Source: a virus
Strand: one strand, 5' to 3'
Virus record (IMG/VR): IMGVR_UViG_3300042402_001861
Location: 96,001 to 160,000 of that record
Length of the DNA stretch: 64,000 nt
Numbering within the stretch: position 1 is the first letter of the stretch; each line of letters starts with the position of its first letter. Below are positions 18,795 to 60,082 of the stretch, piece by piece. The notes beneath the pieces were generated by a model, which worked only from the letters and a program-made list of their open reading frames with translations, was not told where the DNA came from and did not search any database. Made by a program: the position numbers and the translations under genes.

Positions 18795-19271
18795 ATGGGA
18801 TTCAACGACAACTGGGACGGAGTGAAGCGCATCGACCTCAACGAAAAGTTGATCGGCAAGCAGCACAAACTTGACTTCAACAAGGACGGCAAGTTGACCA
18901 AGACCGACTTCGACATCCTCAAGGGAATCCGCAAGGATGCCGAGAAGAAGAAGGACAAGAAGGAGTCCGTCGAAGAAGTCGATGAGGCCACGAATCAGGC
19001 ACCGAGACTGCCGCACTTCACCGACCTGAAGGACTTCGCTGCCAATGTCCGAAAGACAGCAATGACAGTCAAGTCTTCGGACATGCAGAACTATCTCCTG
19101 CAAGTCTCGGGTTCACTTGCTCATGCCGGTCAGCAGCAGGCATATTTCTTTGAAGGACTCATCAGTTCCCTTACGGACATTCACCGCAAGACCATGAGTC
19201 CTTCCAAGCACGGCAACATGGAAATACTGAAAGACCTTGAGATGGTGATCAAGGAACTCAAGAAGTATTGA
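18795..19271 (+). CDS. late protein with EF-hand-like DFNKDGKLTKTDF motif
   Basis: late promoter 18771-18776, AGGAG RBS, KKESVEEVDEA linker. Confidence 0.7.
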   Translation: MGFNDNWDGVKRIDLNEKLIGKQHKLDFNKDGKLTKTDFDILKGIRKDAEKKKDKKESVEEVDEATNQAPRLPHFTDLKDFAANVRKTAMTVKSSDMQNYLLQVSGSLAHAGQQQAYFFEGLISSLTDIHRKTMSPSKHGNMEILKDLEMVIKELKKY

Positions 19272-39463: not shown

Positions 39464-40516
39464 ATGAGCAACTTTCTGAAGAGCATTCTCAAGGATTCTG
39501 GCAACGAACACGCATCTCTGGCAGTCGATGGATTGGAGTCCGATGTATCGGGCTTCGTTGATACCGGCTCCTATTCATTCAATGCCCTGCTGTCAGGGAC
39601 GATCTACGGCGGTATGCCCGACAACAAGATCCTCGGCATCGCTGGCGAGTCGGCAACGGGTAAGACATACTTTGCCTTGGGCATTGCCCGCAAGTTCCTA
39701 GAGGAAAAGAAGGACGGGGCAATCCTGTACTTTGACACGGAGCAGGCCGTGACAAGCGACATGATCAACGACCGTGGGCTTGATCCCAAGCGGGTTGCCG
39801 TTTTCCCTGTTGCAACGGTTGAGCAGTTCCGCCACCAGATGTTGCAGATTCTTGACAGTTACGGCAAGATGAAGGAAGAGGATCGCAAGCCGATCCTGGT
39901 TGTACTTGACTCTCTCGGGATGCTTTCCACCAGCAAGGAAATGAACGACGGTCTTGAAGGCAAGGAAGTCCGCGACATGACCCGTTCGCAGATTATCAAG
40001 TCGGTCTTCCGTACCGTGACCCTGAAGTTGGGCAAGTACAACATTCCCCTGATCGTCACCAACCACACCTACGATGTGATTGGTGCCTATGTCCCAACCA
40101 AGGAGATGGGCGGCGGCACGGGACTCAAGTACGCAGCCTCCACCATCGTGTACCTTTCCAAGAAGAAGGAGAAGGTGGACAACGAGGTGATCGGCAACAT
40201 CATCCATTGCAAGTTGTACAAGGGTCGCCTTACCCGCGAGAACAAGATGATCGATACCCTGTTGACCTTCGACAAGGGCTTGGACAAGTACTATGGACTC
40301 GTCCCGCTTGCCATCAAGCACGGGGTCTTCAAGAAGAGTTCGACCAAGATCGAACTGCCCGATGGCAAGTCCGTCTTTGAGTCACAGATCAACAAGAACC
40401 CGGAAAAGTATTACACCGAGGAAATCCTAAAGGCCATCGATGCCGCAGCCTCCAAGGAATTCAAGTATGGCATGGAAGAGGTGGAAGCCGATGGAGCGGA
40501 AAAGACTGCTGATTAA
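39464..40516 (+). CDS. uvsX: RecA-like recombinase
   Basis: GESATGKT, FDTE, DSLGML, NHTY, MGGGTGLKY. Confidence 0.96.
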   Translation: MSNFLKSILKDSGNEHASLAVDGLESDVSGFVDTGSYSFNALLSGTIYGGMPDNKILGIAGESATGKTYFALGIARKFLEEKKDGAILYFDTEQAVTSDMINDRGLDPKRVAVFPVATVEQFRHQMLQILDSYGKMKEEDRKPILVVLDSLGMLSTSKEMNDGLEGKEVRDMTRSQIIKSVFRTVTLKLGKYNIPLIVTNHTYDVIGAYVPTKEMGGGTGLKYAASTIVYLSKKKEKVDNEVIGNIIHCKLYKGRLTRENKMIDTLLTFDKGLDKYYGLVPLAIKHGVFKKSSTKIELPDGKSVFESQINKNPEKYYTEEILKAIDAAASKEFKYGMEEVEADGAEKTAD

Positions 40517-53488: not shown

Positions 53489-54736
53489 ATGATAAGGACT
53501 TTCTCAAGCCTGATCGAAGAGCGGCAACCCGTCATGGAGGCGGTGCAGTCGCAGCATCTTGATCACCTTGAGGACTTGATCTTTTTGGATGGAGGGGTAA
53601 AGAAAGCCACCGAAATCCTTAAGAATCTGGTGAAGTCCTTGGCTTCAGCCACCCCTACGGCAAAGATGGTCATCACCACGAAGTGGGATGGGGCACCGGC
53701 AATAGTGGCAGGAATCCACCCGGCAACTAAGAAGTTCTTCGTGGCACTCAAGGGAGCAACCCTTTCTGCCAATCCCAAGATTTGCTATACACAGGCAGAC
53801 ATCAACCGGGAGTATGGAGACAAGGCGGAACTTGCATCCAAACTTTCAGTTTGCCTGAAGAACCTTCCCTCCGTGTTGCCTGCAAAGGGAATCTATCATG
53901 GGGACTTGCTCTTCACAGACAACAAGAAGATCGCCACAATTGACGGTACATCTATGGTGACTTTCCGACCAAACACGATCATGTATGCCGTTCCTGCTGA
54001 CAGCCCAATGGGAGTGAAGATAAAGGCTGCAAAGATGGGAATCGTATTCCATACGCAGTACACGGGCACGGGCAAGGAACTCAAGGATCTGTCCAAGTCT
54101 CCCCTTTCCTCGCTGCAAGGGTTCAAGCAGACAACTGCCGTATGGTTCACGGGTGCCACTTTGCCGTCCCCGCCATCAGGATCAACCTTCCTCACGGCAA
54201 GCAACGCCAAGCAGATAGTTGACCTTATTGGATTGATTGCGGCATCGGCAACCCAAGTCAACTCATTTCTCAAGATTGTGAAGAAGTCCCACGAAAAGGA
54301 CATCTACGCAGAACTGATGCCCTTCATCAATTCGGGGGTTCGGGCAGGAATTTCAAAATACGATTCCGCCAAGTTGAAGGTGTTCATCGAAGGTAAATAC
54401 AATGCAGCAATCGCGAAGTTGAAGACACAGACAAAGATAGCAGAGAAACAAAACGACAAGAAGAAGGCAATTGCCTTCATCGATGCATACGCAGGGCAGT
54501 TTGATCAGTTGTTCAAGGTTCACTCGTTGGTGTCGGAAGCAAAGATGGTGGTAATCAGCAAGTTGTCTGAAGTAAAGACGATAGGAACATACTTGCCAAC
54601 CGCATCCGGCTTGAAGGCAACCAATCCCGAAGGATTCGTTGCCGTGTGTGGAAAGACTTGTTCAACCATCAAGTTGATAGACAGATTGGTGTTCGCAAAC
54701 GCAAACATGAACATAACCAAGGATTGGAAGAAATGA
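53489..54736 (+). CDS. conserved T4-like protein with ligase-type KxDG motif (DUF6267-like)
   Basis: HLDHLED, TTKWDGAPA, PEGFV, KLIDR; MIRTFSSLIEE. Confidence 0.7.
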   Translation: MIRTFSSLIEERQPVMEAVQSQHLDHLEDLIFLDGGVKKATEILKNLVKSLASATPTAKMVITTKWDGAPAIVAGIHPATKKFFVALKGATLSANPKICYTQADINREYGDKAELASKLSVCLKNLPSVLPAKGIYHGDLLFTDNKKIATIDGTSMVTFRPNTIMYAVPADSPMGVKIKAAKMGIVFHTQYTGTGKELKDLSKSPLSSLQGFKQTTAVWFTGATLPSPPSGSTFLTASNAKQIVDLIGLIAASATQVNSFLKIVKKSHEKDIYAELMPFINSGVRAGISKYDSAKLKVFIEGKYNAAIAKLKTQTKIAEKQNDKKKAIAFIDAYAGQFDQLFKVHSLVSEAKMVVISKLSEVKTIGTYLPTASGLKATNPEGFVAVCGKTCSTIKLIDRLVFANANMNITKDWKK

Positions 54737-57700
54737 AAACCTTCTCGGAAGCAACAAAGAACTTCAAGCCAAAGGGCAAGTCCGTAGTAGTGGCTGTTGG
54801 GAGGTTCAATCCCCCCACCACAGGGCATGAACTTCTTCTCAAGAAGGTCAAGGAAGTGCAGTCTGCAAAGGGTGCCGATGCTCATGTCATCTACTACAGT
54901 TATTCCAACGATCCTAAGAAGAATCCCCTGACTGCGGCGCAGAAAGCCAAGTATCTCAAGCAATTCTTCCCCGGCTACAAGTTCAAGCAGATGCCCAAGC
55001 CTTCGGCAAAGGGTTCGGGTGTATATGCCTGTATGCAGGAGTTGAGCGACCAAGGCTACACACAGGTTTATGTTGTGACCGGTGCCGATCACATGACGGA
55101 ATACCAACTTGTCAAGAAGTACATCAAGAAGACCCCGACACAGAAGGACGGGTACAACTTCAGCAAGTACGAGATAATCAGCGCAGGAGAGCGTGATCCC
55201 GATTCTGAGGGAGTGGTCGGCATGTCTGCAAGCAAGATGCGTAAGGCCGCATTCGATAAGGACATCAAGACCTTCATGACGGGCATTCCTTCAGGAGTTT
55301 CCAAGACGGTAGCAAAGCAGATGTACAATGATGTCCGCAAGGGAATGAGCCTAAAGGAAGAGGTGATCGTAGAGGAAACCAAGACACCCGTGACGATCAT
55401 CGCTCTCACTTCAAGCATGGAAGAGAGCGAGAAAAGCACAATCGGAAAGATGGAGGAAGCCTGCAAGAAGTACAAGGTGAACTTCCATCCGATCCGCATC
55501 AAGACCGCCACCATCAACATCGCCAAGGCAAGTCCCGACAAGATCACCATAGAGAACTTCGATGGCGAAGGAAATGATGTCACCATCATCCCGAACCAGA
55601 CCCTGTGCGTTGTCCGTGGTGGCACGATGAACAGCGAAGTCGGCATTGCCCTCCTCATGTTGTTGCAGAACAACGGCGTATTCATGGTGAACGAACGAGG
55701 CGGCATGGATCTGTGTGCAAACAAGTTGCAGACTGCCATCACGCTAAAGCGACACAACATTCCTCACCCAAAGACTGCATTCGTCGCAGATGCTGAATCC
55801 ATTCCCGATGCCCTGAAGCAGATCGGAGGGAAGTTCCCCGTCATCGTCAAAACCCTGACGGGAGCGGAGGGAATTGGCGTATCGATCATCGAAAGCGAAA
55901 AGTCACTTGTGTCCGTGCTGCAAAGCCTGTGGAAGTACGGTGCCGAGATCATTCTTCAGGAATTCATTCCCGGCTTCACCCATGATGTCCGAAGCATCTG
56001 TCTCAACGGCAAGATTTTCGCATCTGCCAAGCGAGACAAGGCCAAGGGAGACTTCAGAACGAATATTGCCCGTGGTTCAAAGGGCGGTTCATTCGAACTA
56101 TCTGAGGACGAGATCAAGTTGGTGGAAACCGTGGCGAGGGTTTCCAAGTGCTACTATGTCGGAGTCGATCATGTGGTCGCTGGTGGAAAGCCTTACATCA
56201 TAGAGATGAATGCGAGCCCCGGAAGCGGAAATGTCTACACTCTGTATGAGGACGGAAAGCCGACAAAGGATGTTGATGGCGATGAACTTGTCGAAGAACT
56301 CGTCAAGCACCTGTCCAACAAGCAGAATTGGAAGTTGTTCAGTTCCGTCGCGGTGGTCGAACCAATAAAGGTCGCAGGCGAGGAATTCTACGGCAAGGTG
56401 GATACGGGCAACAGCGGTTACAACTCAATCCATGCCACGGACATTAAGATCAACGAGAAGAACCACACAGTCACCTTCAAGTTCAATGGCGAGAAGGAGA
56501 TGACCAAGCCCATACAGAGCCGTATTCGTCTTCGCCATGGTTCTTCCAAGGAAGAGGCAGTCCGTCCGACTGTCCTGTTTGATGTTGAATTTAATGGCAG
56601 GGAATTCAAGAATGTCAAGTTCAGTCTTGCCGACAGAAGCCACATGAACTACAAGGTTCTTCTTGGTCTTCGTTTCCTCGTTCAGGCCGGTGTCATGGTC
56701 GATCCCAAGGACATGTCGGCTTCGAAGACGAAGATCGATGAGGAGAAACTTGCCATGCAAGGCAAGGAAATGAAGAGTCACCTTGACGGTCTGATTTCAA
56801 AGATCAGGGAAAAGCATGGAAGCACAAATGTGACCTATTCGCAGGCTATGAAGATCGTAGGTGCGACAGGTGCTGCTCGTCTTGCTGCCCGTGGAATGAT
56901 TAAGCGTGACAGCGGCAAGAAGGAAAAGGGAGAACTTGGCAAGGAATCCGTGGAGGAATCCAAGTACACAACCAAGACCGGAAAGGCCGTGTCTCCTGCA
57001 AGAGACACGAAGGCCGACTTGCCGAAGAAGTATGTCGCTGGCCTGAGCAAGACGCAGAAGGCAAAGCGAAAGGCACAATTTGACAAGCGCAAGGACATTC
57101 CCGACAGCGATCCCCGTGCATGGAAGAAGTTGCCGGGTGATCCAAAGGAAACCAAGAGAAAGTCCAAGTACACTCAATTGTTTGCCAAGAAGTTTGGGAA
57201 GAAGGTTGAAGAGGCAATCGATCAATTGATGAAGATCGATTCACTCTCCATCCCCATGTCGGAAAAGGTCGAACGAGTCAGGGAATACCAATCCAAGTTG
57301 CAGACGAAGGAAGAAAGAGACATCTGCACGGTCTTTATTGAAGTCGTCAAGAACGAGATGTACGAACCATATTCCAACATCAAGACAACCTTGGACGAGG
57401 ATTTCGAGTGGATGATGTACAACAGTACGGATTCAGAGTCCACGGCAAGAATCATTAAGAAGAAGTTGCAGGAAGTTCTTGAAATCGGAACCAACGAAAT
57501 CGTCAAGGCGTATTCCAAGATGACTCCGGGGCAGAAGTACTACACCGAGGACAAGGCCAAGGAAGAGCAGGATGCCCTTTACAAGGAATGGGAAAAGTTG
57601 GTCAACATGGGTCCAAAGGAGTTGGAGTCCTTCATCGATTCAGATGAGGGCGAAGAAGCAGGACTTTCCCGCAAGGAGGCTTCCAAAGCAGGAGCCAAGG

Positions 57701-57918
57701 GCGGAAAGATCAAGTCCGGACGAGACTCGGCCCGTGCCATTGTACGCATGTTGCAGACCAAGAAGAAGGATTGGACACCCAACGATTGGGAATGGGCACG
57801 AAGACAGGTCAATTTCATCACACGCATGAAGGGAGCCCAAGGACCGATGCGTGACGAAAAGGGTCGCCCAACAAGGAAACTTCTGGCTCTGAAGATTTGG
57901 GGCCACAACCCGGAATAA
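54733..57918 (+). CDS. multidomain protein: HIGH-family cytidyltransferase-like, RimK ATP-grasp, RimK-associated aspartyl protease, small C-terminal domains
   Basis: GRFNPPTTGH, SASKMR; NKLQT, IVKTLTG..G.GV, LQEFI, DVRS, FRTN, IEMNASPG; KVDTG, RP.V, VLLG; WGHNP. Confidence 0.85.
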   Translation: MKTFSEATKNFKPKGKSVVVAVGRFNPPTTGHELLLKKVKEVQSAKGADAHVIYYSYSNDPKKNPLTAAQKAKYLKQFFPGYKFKQMPKPSAKGSGVYACMQELSDQGYTQVYVVTGADHMTEYQLVKKYIKKTPTQKDGYNFSKYEIISAGERDPDSEGVVGMSASKMRKAAFDKDIKTFMTGIPSGVSKTVAKQMYNDVRKGMSLKEEVIVEETKTPVTIIALTSSMEESEKSTIGKMEEACKKYKVNFHPIRIKTATINIAKASPDKITIENFDGEGNDVTIIPNQTLCVVRGGTMNSEVGIALLMLLQNNGVFMVNERGGMDLCANKLQTAITLKRHNIPHPKTAFVADAESIPDALKQIGGKFPVIVKTLTGAEGIGVSIIESEKSLVSVLQSLWKYGAEIILQEFIPGFTHDVRSICLNGKIFASAKRDKAKGDFRTNIARGSKGGSFELSEDEIKLVETVARVSKCYYVGVDHVVAGGKPYIIEMNASPGSGNVYTLYEDGKPTKDVDGDELVEELVKHLSNKQNWKLFSSVAVVEPIKVAGEEFYGKVDTGNSGYNSIHATDIKINEKNHTVTFKFNGEKEMTKPIQSRIRLRHGSSKEEAVRPTVLFDVEFNGREFKNVKFSLADRSHMNYKVLLGLRFLVQAGVMVDPKDMSASKTKIDEEKLAMQGKEMKSHLDGLISKIREKHGSTNVTYSQAMKIVGATGAARLAARGMIKRDSGKKEKGELGKESVEESKYTTKTGKAVSPARDTKADLPKKYVAGLSKTQKAKRKAQFDKRKDIPDSDPRAWKKLPGDPKETKRKSKYTQLFAKKFGKKVEEAIDQLMKIDSLSIPMSEKVERVREYQSKLQTKEERDICTVFIEVVKNEMYEPYSNIKTTLDEDFEWMMYNSTDSESTARIIKKKLQEVLEIGTNEIVKAYSKMTPGQKYYTEDKAKEEQDALYKEWEKLVNMGPKELESFIDSDEGEEAGLSRKEASKAGAKGGKIKSGRDSARAIVRMLQTKKKDWTPNDWEWARRQVNFITRMKGAQGPMRDEKGRPTRKLLALKIWGHNPE

Positions 57919-57923
57919 TTCAA

Positions 57924-58190
57924 ATGCAAAGATTCAAAAACTACATCTCCGAAGACAAGCCAGCCGCACATACATCCTTGGAGAAGAAGTCCAAGGCTTC
58001 AGGCATCCCTTACCGCTTCCTCAAGCAAGTCTATGACCGTGGAGTGGTCGCATGGAAGGGAGGCCATAGGCCGGGGGCTGGCCCCGAGCAATGGGGTCTG
58101 GCAAGAGTCAACAGTTTCATCGTCGGCGGCAAGACTCGTCATACCGCCGATGCAGACATTTGGAAAAAGTACAAGGGCAGCAAGCGTTAA
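57924..58190 (+). CDS. small conserved protein (DUF5824-like)
   Basis: LKQVYDRG..AW..GHRPG..QWG.ARVNSF; MQRFKNYISE. Confidence 0.75.
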   Translation: MQRFKNYISEDKPAAHTSLEKKSKASGIPYRFLKQVYDRGVVAWKGGHRPGAGPEQWGLARVNSFIVGGKTRHTADADIWKKYKGSKR

Positions 58191-58234
58191 ATTTCGCTAA
58201 ATACCCAAGCATCAACTTCACCTAGAGGTAAACA

Positions 58235-59152
58235 ATGCACAGTAACAAAATCTCTGCCAATTTGCAAAATGACATTCTGAAGGTTCTTCGTGGCGAAACT
58301 ATTTCGAAGACCGAACTCCCGACCGCCATCATGGAGGCCGCAAAGCAGGCTTCCATCGATCTGGGTCATGCCTTCCTTGACGAGGGCTATCTGTCGGCAG
58401 AACGCCGCCGCGACATCCTTCGCCGCAACCTCGCAGAGGGGTTGAAGAAGTGCGGATGCACTCCGACCACGGAAATGATCAACCGCTACGAGGAAGAGGC
58501 TTCCAAGCCCGTTCAGGTTGATGCTAAGAAGGAAGTTGCCGAGGAAACCAAGAAGGAAGAAGTCGTTGATGAGGCAGTAGTGACCGAAACCGAAGAAGAA
58601 ACTCTTACCGAAAGCAAGGCTAAGGTCACACAAACAAAAGATGGCCGTTATTTCTTCGAATATCCAGGAATGAGTGCAACAACACGGGCTGGACTTATGC
58701 TCTGGGTAAGAGAGGTGTTTGGAACAAACGACAAAACCTACACCTCGGCTAATACTAAGAAAGCATATGACACACTTGCCAAACATGCAGATGGAATCAA
58801 TGCATGGATGAAAAAGAACAATTTCGGATCATTTGCCAACGGTACGCACCCTAACTATAAGCACCTTATTGGTTATTATCTGAAGAACCTAAAGGGTGTA
58901 AATATTAAGGGCAAGTACGATGTTAAGAATGATCTCGGAGCCGGTAAGACTTTAAAGAAGGAAGAAGTCGTTGATGAGGCTGCATCCGACATGATGCTTC
59001 GCTCTTGGATTCGCAACAATTATCCAAGCGCCGACAACACCAAGTTCAACAAGATCCTCGCAGCAATGCAGAAGCAGTACAACAAAGACCCCAAGGGCTA
59101 TACCTACGGTGGCGGCTTCAGCAAGGTTGCAAAGGACGCAGGGATCAAGTAA
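58235..59152 (+). CDS. late modular protein with duplicated KKEEVVDEA linkers
   Basis: late promoter 58198-58203; 26-bp direct repeat. Confidence 0.75.
   Translation: MHSNKISANLQNDILKVLRGETISKTELPTAIMEAAKQASIDLGHAFLDEGYLSAERRRDILRRNLAEGLKKCGCTPTTEMINRYEEEASKPVQVDAKKEVAEETKKEEVVDEAVVTETEEETLTESKAKVTQTKDGRYFFEYPGMSATTRAGLMLWVREVFGTNDKTYTSANTKKAYDTLAKHADGINAWMKKNNFGSFANGTHPNYKHLIGYYLKNLKGVNIKGKYDVKNDLGAGKTLKKEEVVDEAASDMMLRSWIRNNYPSADNTKFNKILAAMQKQYNKDPKGYTYGGGFSKVAKDAGIK
58550..58980 (+). repeat. 26-bp exact direct repeat flanking an AT-richer segment
   Basis: AAGAAGGAAGAAGTCGTTGATGAGGC at 58550-58575 and 58955-58980. Confidence 0.9.
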
Positions 59153-59200
59153 TCCCTTTCCGAGAGACTAAATAACAGAGCCCCCAAAGGAGAACCATAG

Positions 59201-60082
59201 ATGCCACTCTGGAAGAACAACAATCGCGAAGAGTCGAAGCCGTCATGGCTGAACAAGATCGAGAAGAGACTTTGCGTCCGCACCGTCCGTGGTTGGGAGA
59301 AGCCCCTTGATGGGTCTTTCTTCAGCCAAGGAACCACCGCAACCAACTCGGTTCCTGTTCAGATGGAACTCCTTGTCACCATGCCTTATGATCCTTCGAT
59401 CACGGGTGGCGTAAACAGCGCATATGCCTACAGAACAGTAGGCGGGCTCTCCTCGGACAGCCGTGGCATCACTTCGTCCACCGAAGTGCAGTATTCTCCC
59501 TACTTCTCGACTCCTTTCGATGGAGACAGCGCCACCGCAGGCGGTCCTGCTGGTGTTGGAGTCACCCACGACAACATCACCTATGTTGTTCCCAATGGTG
59601 CAACTCGCGGTGCTGGAGTCGGCTACCAGTATGGCGTGAATGCCTATGGCGTGTCCACCCTCGGTGGCCTGACCGGCGTTACCGCTTACATCAAGATTGT
59701 TGCCAACGATACCAACCTGACACAGAACCTAACTATCGGTCTGTCGGGAACCTACAACGGAATGGCTCTCTACACCGGCATCGGACTGACTGTCGGCAAT
59801 GCCGCTCCTGCCATTCCAGAGGTTGTGTACAACGCCTTCTTCGGTGCAACCGGAGATGATCCGGGGATCAAGCAGTATCGTCAAGACAACATCGCTGTTC
59901 TTGTTGTCGGTGGCCAGACTGCTGCCGGTACAAAGGTTGTTGATCTAATCGTTCGCGACAACTCGGGTGTCACCTTCGGCACCATCAACGGTCTGACGGG
60001 AGCAACCGGCTTTGCCGAATTCACGCTGTCGTTCGACCGTAATGCCGCCGATGCCAAGTGGATCACTTCGTACTCGAAGTAA
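59201..60082 (+). CDS. probable virion structural protein (Gly/Thr-rich)
   Basis: late promoter 59169-59174, AAAGGAG RBS, MPLW start. Confidence 0.7.
   Translation: MPLWKNNNREESKPSWLNKIEKRLCVRTVRGWEKPLDGSFFSQGTTATNSVPVQMELLVTMPYDPSITGGVNSAYAYRTVGGLSSDSRGITSSTEVQYSPYFSTPFDGDSATAGGPAGVGVTHDNITYVVPNGATRGAGVGYQYGVNAYGVSTLGGLTGVTAYIKIVANDTNLTQNLTIGLSGTYNGMALYTGIGLTVGNAAPAIPEVVYNAFFGATGDDPGIKQYRQDNIAVLVVGGQTAAGTKVVDLIVRDNSGVTFGTINGLTGATGFAEFTLSFDRNAADAKWITSYSK

Follow-up and report, generated by a model that had tools for sequence, protein, structure and literature searches.

The stretch of DNA analysed here (64,000 nt, hereafter the window) corresponds to positions 96001-160000 of a 177,364-bp IMG/VR virus record, which is 98% complete and represents an uncultured T4-like myovirus from lake/freshwater. 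A T4-type DNA polymerase, a DnaB-type helicase and a UvsX-like RecA are all encoded in the window, and the head genes (portal, Peptidase_S77 (gp21-type) prohead protease, scaffold and gp23-like) are located at 67-74 kb of the genome. The gene under study encodes a protein of 305 amino acids, is far from these head genes and occupies the third place in a conserved gene order (~1000-aa polyprotein, small DUF5824 gene, 305-aa gene, ~300-aa gene); the polyprotein upstream contains nucleotidyltransferase, RimK and RimB-like protease domains. DNA and protein searches of the INPHARED phages with the locus gave no match, and the genome is without a close relative among deposited phages. The sequencing runs found to hold the locus were lake-water and freshwater metagenomes. 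The features referred to below are as follows (all on the + strand; positions are those of the window).

18972-18988, +: related linker DNA GAAGAAGTCGATGAGGC (EEVDEA), in the two-module ORF 18795..19271
39464..40516, +: UvsX-like RecA recombinase, candidate agent of exchange (Pfam RecA, E 2e-14)
58197..58203, +: CTAAATA motif, late-promoter-like, 38 nt upstream of the ATG of the 305-aa ORF
58235..59152, +: ORF of 305 aa, N1 - linker - B - linker - C, no Pfam or PHROG family
58235..58519, +: module N1, aa 1-95, four predicted helices (at aa 8-89; AlphaFold2 model), the constant part of the family
58550..58575, +: repeat copy 1, KKEEVVDE(A), in predicted disordered linker 1 (aa 95-125)
58576..58954, +: unique part of the cassette, 379 bp, low GC and GC3, contains module B, absent from contig L003
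58616-58888, +: module B, aa ~128-218, predicted hairpin and helices (AlphaFold2 model)
58955..58980, +: repeat copy 2, KKEEVVDE(A), in predicted disordered linker 2 (aa 220-250)
58976..59149, +: module C, aa 248-305 (SDMMLRSWIRNNYP...), three predicted helices (to aa 302; AlphaFold2 model)

A second copy of the CTAAATA motif was found at 59168, 33 nt upstream of the next gene, and the motif occurs nine times in the window compared to 1.5 expected. We take it to resemble the core of T4-type late promoters, as in those of T4-like phages and cyanomyoviruses.

The sequence AAGAAGGAAGAAGTCGTTGATGAGGC forms an exact 26-bp direct repeat with two copies in the window (58550-58575 and 58955-58980, + strand). 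The spacing of the copies is 405 bp (135 codons), both are in frame in ORF 58235..59152, and each encodes KKEEVVDE together with the first two bases of an Ala codon; a sequence scan thereby confirmed the exact, in-frame KKEEVVDEA repeat at 58550 and 58955 which had been reported in an initial annotation of this DNA. When the whole 177-kb genome was scanned for copies of the linker DNA, the exact 26-mer was found at these two places only, and no further copy was present in the window at up to 3 mismatches (0 expected by chance). Identity between the copies ends abruptly on either side of the 26 bp. Given the codon usage of the genome itself, the probability that two independent encodings of KKEEVVDE come out identical is approximately 0.0026, and for this reason the repeat is attributed to a duplication of DNA and not solely to conservation of the peptide.

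The stretch between the repeats was also found to differ in composition from the remainder of the gene, in agreement with the earlier description of an AT-richer middle domain with a different codon style. Its GC content is 0.417 and its GC3 0.41, compared to 0.54 and 0.65 in the N-terminal flank and 0.51 and 0.73 in the C-terminal flank, and a GC content this low is reached in only 1.6% of genome windows of the same size. On composition the cassette is foreign and would have come from a lower-GC source. A 20-mer from the repeat had no match in IMG/VR and 14 matches in metagenome contigs; all 14 were single copies in unrelated contexts and therefore no cassette donor was identified.

The 305-aa protein was modelled with AlphaFold2, and module B was also modelled alone. 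Three folded parts (N1, B and C) were distinguished in the model, with pLDDT values below 50 at aa 95-125 and 220-250; the repeat copies, at aa 106-114 and 241-249, both fall within these low-confidence stretches. The three modules are predicted in this model to fold separately, with the repeats located in disordered linkers. Modelled alone, B gave a pLDDT of 87.6 and a pTM of 0.81.

No significant fold or family match was obtained for any module in Pfam, PHROG, fold and Atlas searches. Pfam and PHROG scans of the ORF and of all 14 family members returned nothing meaningful, a fold search with the whole model in PDB and BFVD gave no match at E <= 0.001, Foldseek with B alone against PDB gave no match, the best score in a VIA wide fold search with B alone (Z 4.4) was within noise, and the ESM Atlas gave no usable match. 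A HMMER search with B over 1.8 billion representatives recovered B itself, P0017 and a spurious repeat-protein match (P0016) only, and no relatives of B were found in a scan of IMG/VR and JGI metagenomes. B is thus far rare, with two homologues recorded, both distant and in different architectures: P0005, which is N1-B-D at the syntenic locus, and P0017, in which an unrelated N-terminus is followed by B at another locus. No longer fused forms of the 305-aa protein were found, which constitutes weak evidence. A reading of the cassette as an intein or intron was rejected; B is translated and is conserved as a protein domain in other architectures.

A search for relatives without the cassette identified L003, a 667-bp contig from an independent freshwater metagenome, which encodes a protein of 170 aa (P0003) corresponding to the 305-aa protein without its middle part. 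L003 aligns to window positions 58132-59203 with 97% identity (20 SNPs in 667 nt) and with a single clean gap of 405 bp, such that a single repeat copy joins the left flank of repeat 1 to the right flank of repeat 2. As the contig was assembled at k=127 and carries 20 SNPs, it is attributed to another strain and not to a collapsed repeat or a chimera of the reads behind the window. When the window and L003 are compared, the longest stretch without a SNP is 227 nt in length and spans the junction (P = 0.004, permutation), which suggests a recent exchange tract centred on the linker.

The cassette was also examined in Logan unitigs (k=31), where the graph of lake run X6 forks at each repeat and shows a left-flank unitig which ends exactly at 58575 and a right-flank unitig which begins exactly at 58955, together with a cassette unitig spanning 58546-58984 at a depth of 7. 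A further unitig of 34 nt and depth 2 fits 58546-58575 as well as 58955-58984, and its length is that expected for the deletion junction (4 nt + 26-nt repeat + 4 nt); the junction was identified from this length and double fit alone, not from its letters. Each flank consists of one unbranched unitig (4.1 and 3.2 kb), with depths of 9.7 and 8.6, approximately 7+2. Both forms appear to coexist in X6, with approximately one fifth of an otherwise identical population being without the cassette, although this is treated as supporting and not decisive because the letters of the 34-mer were not read and the depth is low. In other independent lake runs repeat 1 was crossed without a branch (X13 and X20), as was repeat 2 (X13 and X16), while coverage gaps in X13, X16 and X20 reflect low depth and were not counted as absence of the cassette.

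Mis-assembly or PCR template switching at the repeat could in principle have produced either the cassette or its absence, and the depth of only 2 for the X6 junction and the shortness of the L003 contig are what such an artefact might leave. However, the assembly k values (31 for Logan and 127 for L003) both exceed the 26-bp repeat, so that the junctions need real spanning reads, L003 belongs by its SNPs to another strain, and in four runs the unitigs cover the cassette form unbranched. Since unitigs from independent runs traverse the repeats unbranched, the cassette form is not an assembly artefact, and an artefactual origin of the polymorphism as a whole is considered extremely improbable.

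The next relative out, L012 (P0004, 88% aa identity), is also without B and carries a linker which differs slightly, KKEEVSVDES. The absence of B from L012 and the foreign composition of the cassette favour a gain of B in the lineage of the window, followed by at least one precise loss (the minority form in X6), an order of events for which parsimony and composition are the sole basis.

Relatives at the syntenic locus displayed at least 12 architectures built from approximately nine modules. N1 is kept in P0003-P0011 and L005-L010. The architectures are as follows.

N1 alone: 98 aa, five IMG/VR loci
N1-D: syntenic locus
N1-C: syntenic locus
N1-B-C: 305 aa, the window
N1-B-D: P0005
N1-C-D: syntenic locus
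N1-C-X-D: L018
N1-X-C-D: L019
N1-Y-D: syntenic locus
N1-Z-D: syntenic locus
N2-C-F: module C behind a different N-terminal module
N2-C-W-F: module C behind a different N-terminal module

L018 and L019 share 80% identity in the DNA of module X, but the module is placed after C in the former and before C in the latter. L020 is a three-way mosaic, being 99.4% identical to L013 through N1. Its first switch, to an L018-like linker, falls in a block at the end of N1 which is conserved in all three sequences (…GAAGAGGCCATGAAGCC…), and its second switch, directly after ELDE|SS, leads to a module Z of its own, while its end is an L018-like D (91.5% identity). In addition, a 20-nt stretch encoding EMVDEA is identical in L018 and L020 and is located at different junctions in the two genes. 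The alignments place the breakpoints of the family in conserved linker DNA. The expectation that relatives would carry other domains at the same locus was borne out by these many module sets; the architecture is not fixed among relatives, nor is the repeat an artefact.

The linker type was also found in other genes of the genome. The related linker in ORF 18795..19271, to which the initial annotation had drawn attention, is encoded by GAAGAAGTCGATGAGGC at 18972-18988 (chance expectation 0.02). Among relatives of this ORF, P0020 and P0027 are without the N-proximal module, and in L021 direct repeats of 26 nt (85% identical) enclose an in-frame insert of 411 bp; one module inserted in this family is homologous to a module of the 824-aa polyprotein of the genome. 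As judged from these alignments, the family of ORF 18795..19271 also gains and loses modules. The 824-aa gene itself repeats a linker of the form KKEEVE..xE[A/S] approximately seven times. When the 305-aa, 824-aa and 158-aa proteins were compared with all ORFs of the genome using blastp, no common modules were detected at E 0.01, and the three proteins have the linker type alone in common.

Taken together, the explanation which we regard as probable is that the linker DNA serves as an in-frame crossover point in a beads-on-a-string protein, with general recombination as the agent. That linker-coding DNA is the site of in-frame domain gain, loss and swap is well supported by the sequence comparisons, and the idea of the linker as a recombination handle, first put forward in the initial annotation, was upheld by the precise natural deletion in L003, the X6 graph and the mosaic relatives. 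Under this mechanism three small, independently folding modules would be joined by disordered K/E-rich linkers ending V-D-E|A, and module B with one linker copy would constitute a 405-bp in-frame cassette of lower-GC origin. Homologous recombination between the two repeat copies would remove the cassette precisely, while recombination with similar linker DNA in other genes or in co-infecting phages would insert or exchange modules, through either strand invasion with annealing or the re-integration of excised ~400-bp circles. Because the linker would contain the crossover and the length of the unit is divisible by three, all products would be in frame with a complete linker at each junction. 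The agent of the exchanges is most likely general homologous recombination, UvsX being present, and would thus comprise UvsX and associated functions and not a dedicated site-specific recombinase.

The same annotation had likened the arrangement to an integron-like shuffling system. In the strict sense this was not sustained and the likeness is one of analogy only, since the genome has no integrase or resolvase and the repeats have no attC-like hairpin. A search of the 98%-complete genome for tyrosine recombinases (PF00589) was without a match (14/14 genomes matched in the control search), and a search for serine recombinases (PF00239) in the same genome was likewise negative. No hairpin or inverted repeat was found at the repeats, and their folding was no better than that of shuffled sequence (z = 0.7 and -1.3). 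A dedicated site-specific system, with a recombinase recognising the linker DNA, would account for a cassette-like unit with identical boundaries and for the occurrence of similar units (405 and 411 bp) with 26-nt repeats in two unrelated genes. Against it are the recombinase searches with their positive controls, the lack of hairpin or inverted symmetry in the repeats, and the junctions themselves, which differ between the families (KKEEVVDEA vs NWDGVKR) so that no single recognition site exists; we give such a system only the slightest chance.

Selection acting as a filter was also weighed, namely that modules are joined at random by illegitimate events in which the linker DNA plays no special part, that only in-frame junctions in disordered linkers survive, and that the 26-bp repeat is a by-product of one such event. 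Linkers tolerate insertions and deletions, the linker sequences are quite variable between relatives, and the same 26-mer was found nowhere else in a related context, all of which would fit. Illegitimate joining, however, leaves no perfect 26-bp duplication at both ends; two independent data sets (L003 and X6) show a loss exact to the base, the switches in L020 lie in conserved DNA blocks, and a second family displays the same anatomy (the 411-bp insert of L021 with its 26-nt repeat at 85% identity). A filter of this kind as the sole explanation is consequently judged improbable, and crossover in linker DNA by general recombination is preferred.

The linkers were further examined as possible protease sites. 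The genome has a PF03420 match (Peptidase_S77, gp21 family) at 70699-71136 of the whole genome (E 2e-37, above cut-off), within the gp21 homologue at 70633-71280, and genes for portal, scaffold and a gp23-like protein adjoin this prohead protease gene. The gp21 protease of T4 cuts after Glu in L/I-X-E; the bond is often Glu-Ala, where the activity was first seen, and core proteins are cleaved to several fragments (PMC9026906). In the 305-aa protein VVDE|A is present at aa 111-115 and 246-250, with V in place of the L/I of T4, and the same junctions in relatives read LDE|S/A, IEE|S and VDE|S/A, with none of these inside modules. The pattern [LIVM][DE]E|[ASNT] is confined to module junctions in 12/14 family members, and the motif is kept before C while the linker is otherwise variable; after C, relatives with several modules have I-K-E. 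Proteins of the head region have similar motifs at their starts, with …KEVLDE|A in the 149-aa ORF adjoining the protease and MDLTISE|A in the capsid protein. Motifs as short as [LIV]xE are frequent in linkers rich in E.

The gene for the N2-C-W-F protein is located between the portal and prohead protease genes in other lake phages, and in L016 and L017 a module C protein is encoded at this place. T4 keeps core genes 67 and 68 between its portal and prohead protease genes. A T4-type capsid-targeting leader of ~10 residues (M-K-x-F/Y...hydrophobic-x-E) was not found at the N-terminus MHSNKISANLQNDILKVLRGE of the 305-aa protein, which starts MHSNKISANLQ..., while the upstream neighbour does carry a leader-like start (MQRFKNYISE).

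A head-associated protein which is cut up is proposed because the linker carries the cutting motif of the phage's own gp21-type protease. On this reading the 305-aa protein is likely to be made late, to be associated with the head and to be cut into separate small proteins; for cleavage by gp21 combined with head association of the 305-aa protein in particular, our confidence is tentative and falls a little short of even. Packaging and delivery of the products as injected cargo is plausible. Putative fragments ending …VVDE would have a C-terminal Glu, and the adjoining polyprotein has a RimK-type glutamate ligase, although any link between the two is purely speculative.

An ordinary multidomain cytoplasmic protein with plain flexible linkers, which is neither cut, packaged nor injected and in which [LIV]xE arises by chance from acidic composition, is a possibility which we doubt but take seriously. 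It would agree with the lack of a capsid-targeting-type leader on N1, with the lack of a fold or family match for any module and with the distance of the gene from the head genes in the same genome. It would not be expected to show the motif with A or S after Glu at junctions only, never inside modules, in 12/14 members, or to conserve that motif before C in an otherwise variable linker. In other phages, moreover, the head-morphogenesis cluster includes a gene with module C, the 305-aa gene is preceded by a late-promoter-like motif, and the 824-aa gene of the same genome repeats the linker type, all of which count against an ordinary cytoplasmic protein.

A more far-reaching proposal, which combines both lines and which we consider rather unlikely in its full form, is that one linker of ~26 bases is a dual-use element under selection at the DNA level, acting both as a protease cut site and as a portable, frame-preserving crossover. 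Domain-linker units of ~400 bp would then circulate between genes and between co-infecting phages, possibly as mini-circles, and would continually re-assort the capsid-loaded, injected proteins of these phages without an integrase.

Phage mosaicism is usually described per gene, and the features which make domain shuffling within proteins clean and frequent are largely unexplained. The locus presents one domain-shuffling event at base resolution, polymorphic among near-clonal wild phages. If the linker is also a protease cut site, then head loading, separation and renewal of proteins would be tied to one short sequence; if true, this would offer a concrete, testable route by which early-acting or injected proteins of the phage are renewed rapidly during the arms race with the host, as well as a simple rule for designing cargo which can be exchanged in frame in T4-type packaging vectors.

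No published description of such a coding-linker cassette arrangement was found in the literature searched, although several known systems share parts of it. Domain mosaicism within phage proteins is documented (PMC10684548), in an account where linkers are not mentioned. In the tail-fibre adhesins of T-even phages, exchange occurs at His boxes (gp37) and glycine-rich motifs (gp38) (Tetart et al. 1996, 1998, in Trojet et al. 2011, PMC3157838). Short conserved coding motifs there separate variable segments, as they do here, and in-frame swaps occur in or near the motifs; the adhesin motifs are structural parts of one folded domain and the swaps alter receptor specificity. By contrast, the linker at the present locus is predicted to be disordered and to lie between autonomous domains, and whole domains are gained or lost.

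The internal proteins IPI, IPII, IPIII and Alt of T4, together with the core proteins gp22, gp67 and gp68, are processed by the gp21 prohead protease (PMC9026906, PMC3012670). The present genome likewise has a gp21-family protease, the junctions fit (hydrophobic)-x-Glu followed by Ala/Ser, and the family resembles the T-even internal proteins as a highly diverse set of small proteins. Unlike the T4 internal and core proteins, the 305-aa protein has no recognisable 10-residue capsid-targeting sequence and carries several modules in one chain. Polyvalent proteins combine several unrelated domains in a single polypeptide of the phage, for which entry alongside the DNA and proteolytic release have been proposed (Iyer et al. 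2017, PMC5512222; the word 'linker' is absent from that paper). The 305-aa protein is similar in that three unrelated modules, predicted to fold separately, occur in different combinations. Polyvalent proteins, however, are defined by known conflict-related enzyme domains, often with an embedded MPTase peptidase, whereas the 305-aa ORF is without a known domain or a peptidase of its own in the Pfam, PHROG, fold and Atlas searches.

As with integron cassettes, discrete units with repeated boundaries are added to or dropped from a fixed platform, but an IntI-type recombinase, attC hairpins and promoterless whole-gene cassettes are lacking and exchange is apparently homology-driven. The closest documented mechanism is the shuffling mediated by PeSLs (promoter-early stem-loops) in T4-type phages, in which cassettes recombine between short flanking repeats with no dedicated recombinase known and excision can give circles of ~400-800 bp; the authors draw the integron analogy themselves (Arbiol et al. 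2010, PMC2839356; see also Comeau et al. 2014, PMC4122927). In both cases direct repeats flank a small unit which is present or absent between near-identical phages, and the breakpoint is inside the repeat. The PeSL is an intergenic sigma-70-type early promoter with a terminator stem-loop and moves whole ORFs, whereas the 26-bp repeat described here, which has no hairpin, is coding, lies within one ORF, would move a domain in frame and is at the same time a candidate protease site.

When the window was compared with L003, a 97%-identical freshwater contig which lacks the 405-bp cassette and retains a single repeat copy at the junction, all SNPs (20/20) were found to lie outside one tract centred on that junction (P = 0.004):

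Window 58424-58575 and 58981-59055: SNP-free tract between the window and L003, 227 nt in total.

This distribution of the SNPs suggests a recent exchange of sequence around the linker.

The repeat-flanked cassette anatomy has a second example in another gene family. At L021:119-555, in a relative of window ORF 18795..19271, an in-frame insert of 411 bp carrying two modules was identified, which is bounded by a 26-nt direct repeat (beginning GAtAATTGGGACGGC..., copies 85% identical) encoding the peptide (D/E)NWDG(I/V)(Q/K)R. The unit and repeat are nearly equal in size to those of the window (411 versus 405 bp, and 26 nt versus 26 bp). A module found within this insert (FKAGDKVKVPHKG...) was also present in an 824-aa ORF located outside the window on the minus strand of the whole phage genome (G000 81715-84189), which contains approximately seven linkers of the form K(K)EEVE..xE[A/S].

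Module C was also observed behind a different N-terminal module in another lake T4-like phage (L016/L017:4001-4720), where the gene for a 239-aa N2-C-W-F protein lies between those of the portal and the prohead protease, accompanied by four further small ORFs with no families. The copies of module X (GVPAGAGEDKFKAAREIIKKAG...) at L018:3001-3768 and L019:1501-2274, two loci from other phages, share 80% DNA identity; this module follows module C in one phage and precedes it in the other.

The motif CTAAATA occurs at nine sites in the window (1.5 expected, a six-fold excess), including 58197 and 59168; several of these precede a start codon by 12-38 nt, and the motif is therefore a candidate late-promoter core. 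The conserved downstream gene (window 59201-60082), which is preceded by its own CTAAATA motif and has no family assignment, may encode a structural protein; its product is 293 aa here versus 314-345 aa in relatives, the length variation falling in the Gly/Thr-rich middle part.

Upstream, DUF5824 is matched in two halves, with DUF3140 and DUF6321 located between them: the N-terminal half (profile positions 1-62) corresponds to residues 793-860 of a 1090-aa polyprotein (window 54646-57918), while a small ORF (window 57897-58190) matches the C-terminal half only (profile positions 52-123). The true start of this small ORF is probably the ATG at 57924, giving the N-terminus MQRFKNYISE, which is similar to the T4 capsid-targeting leader.
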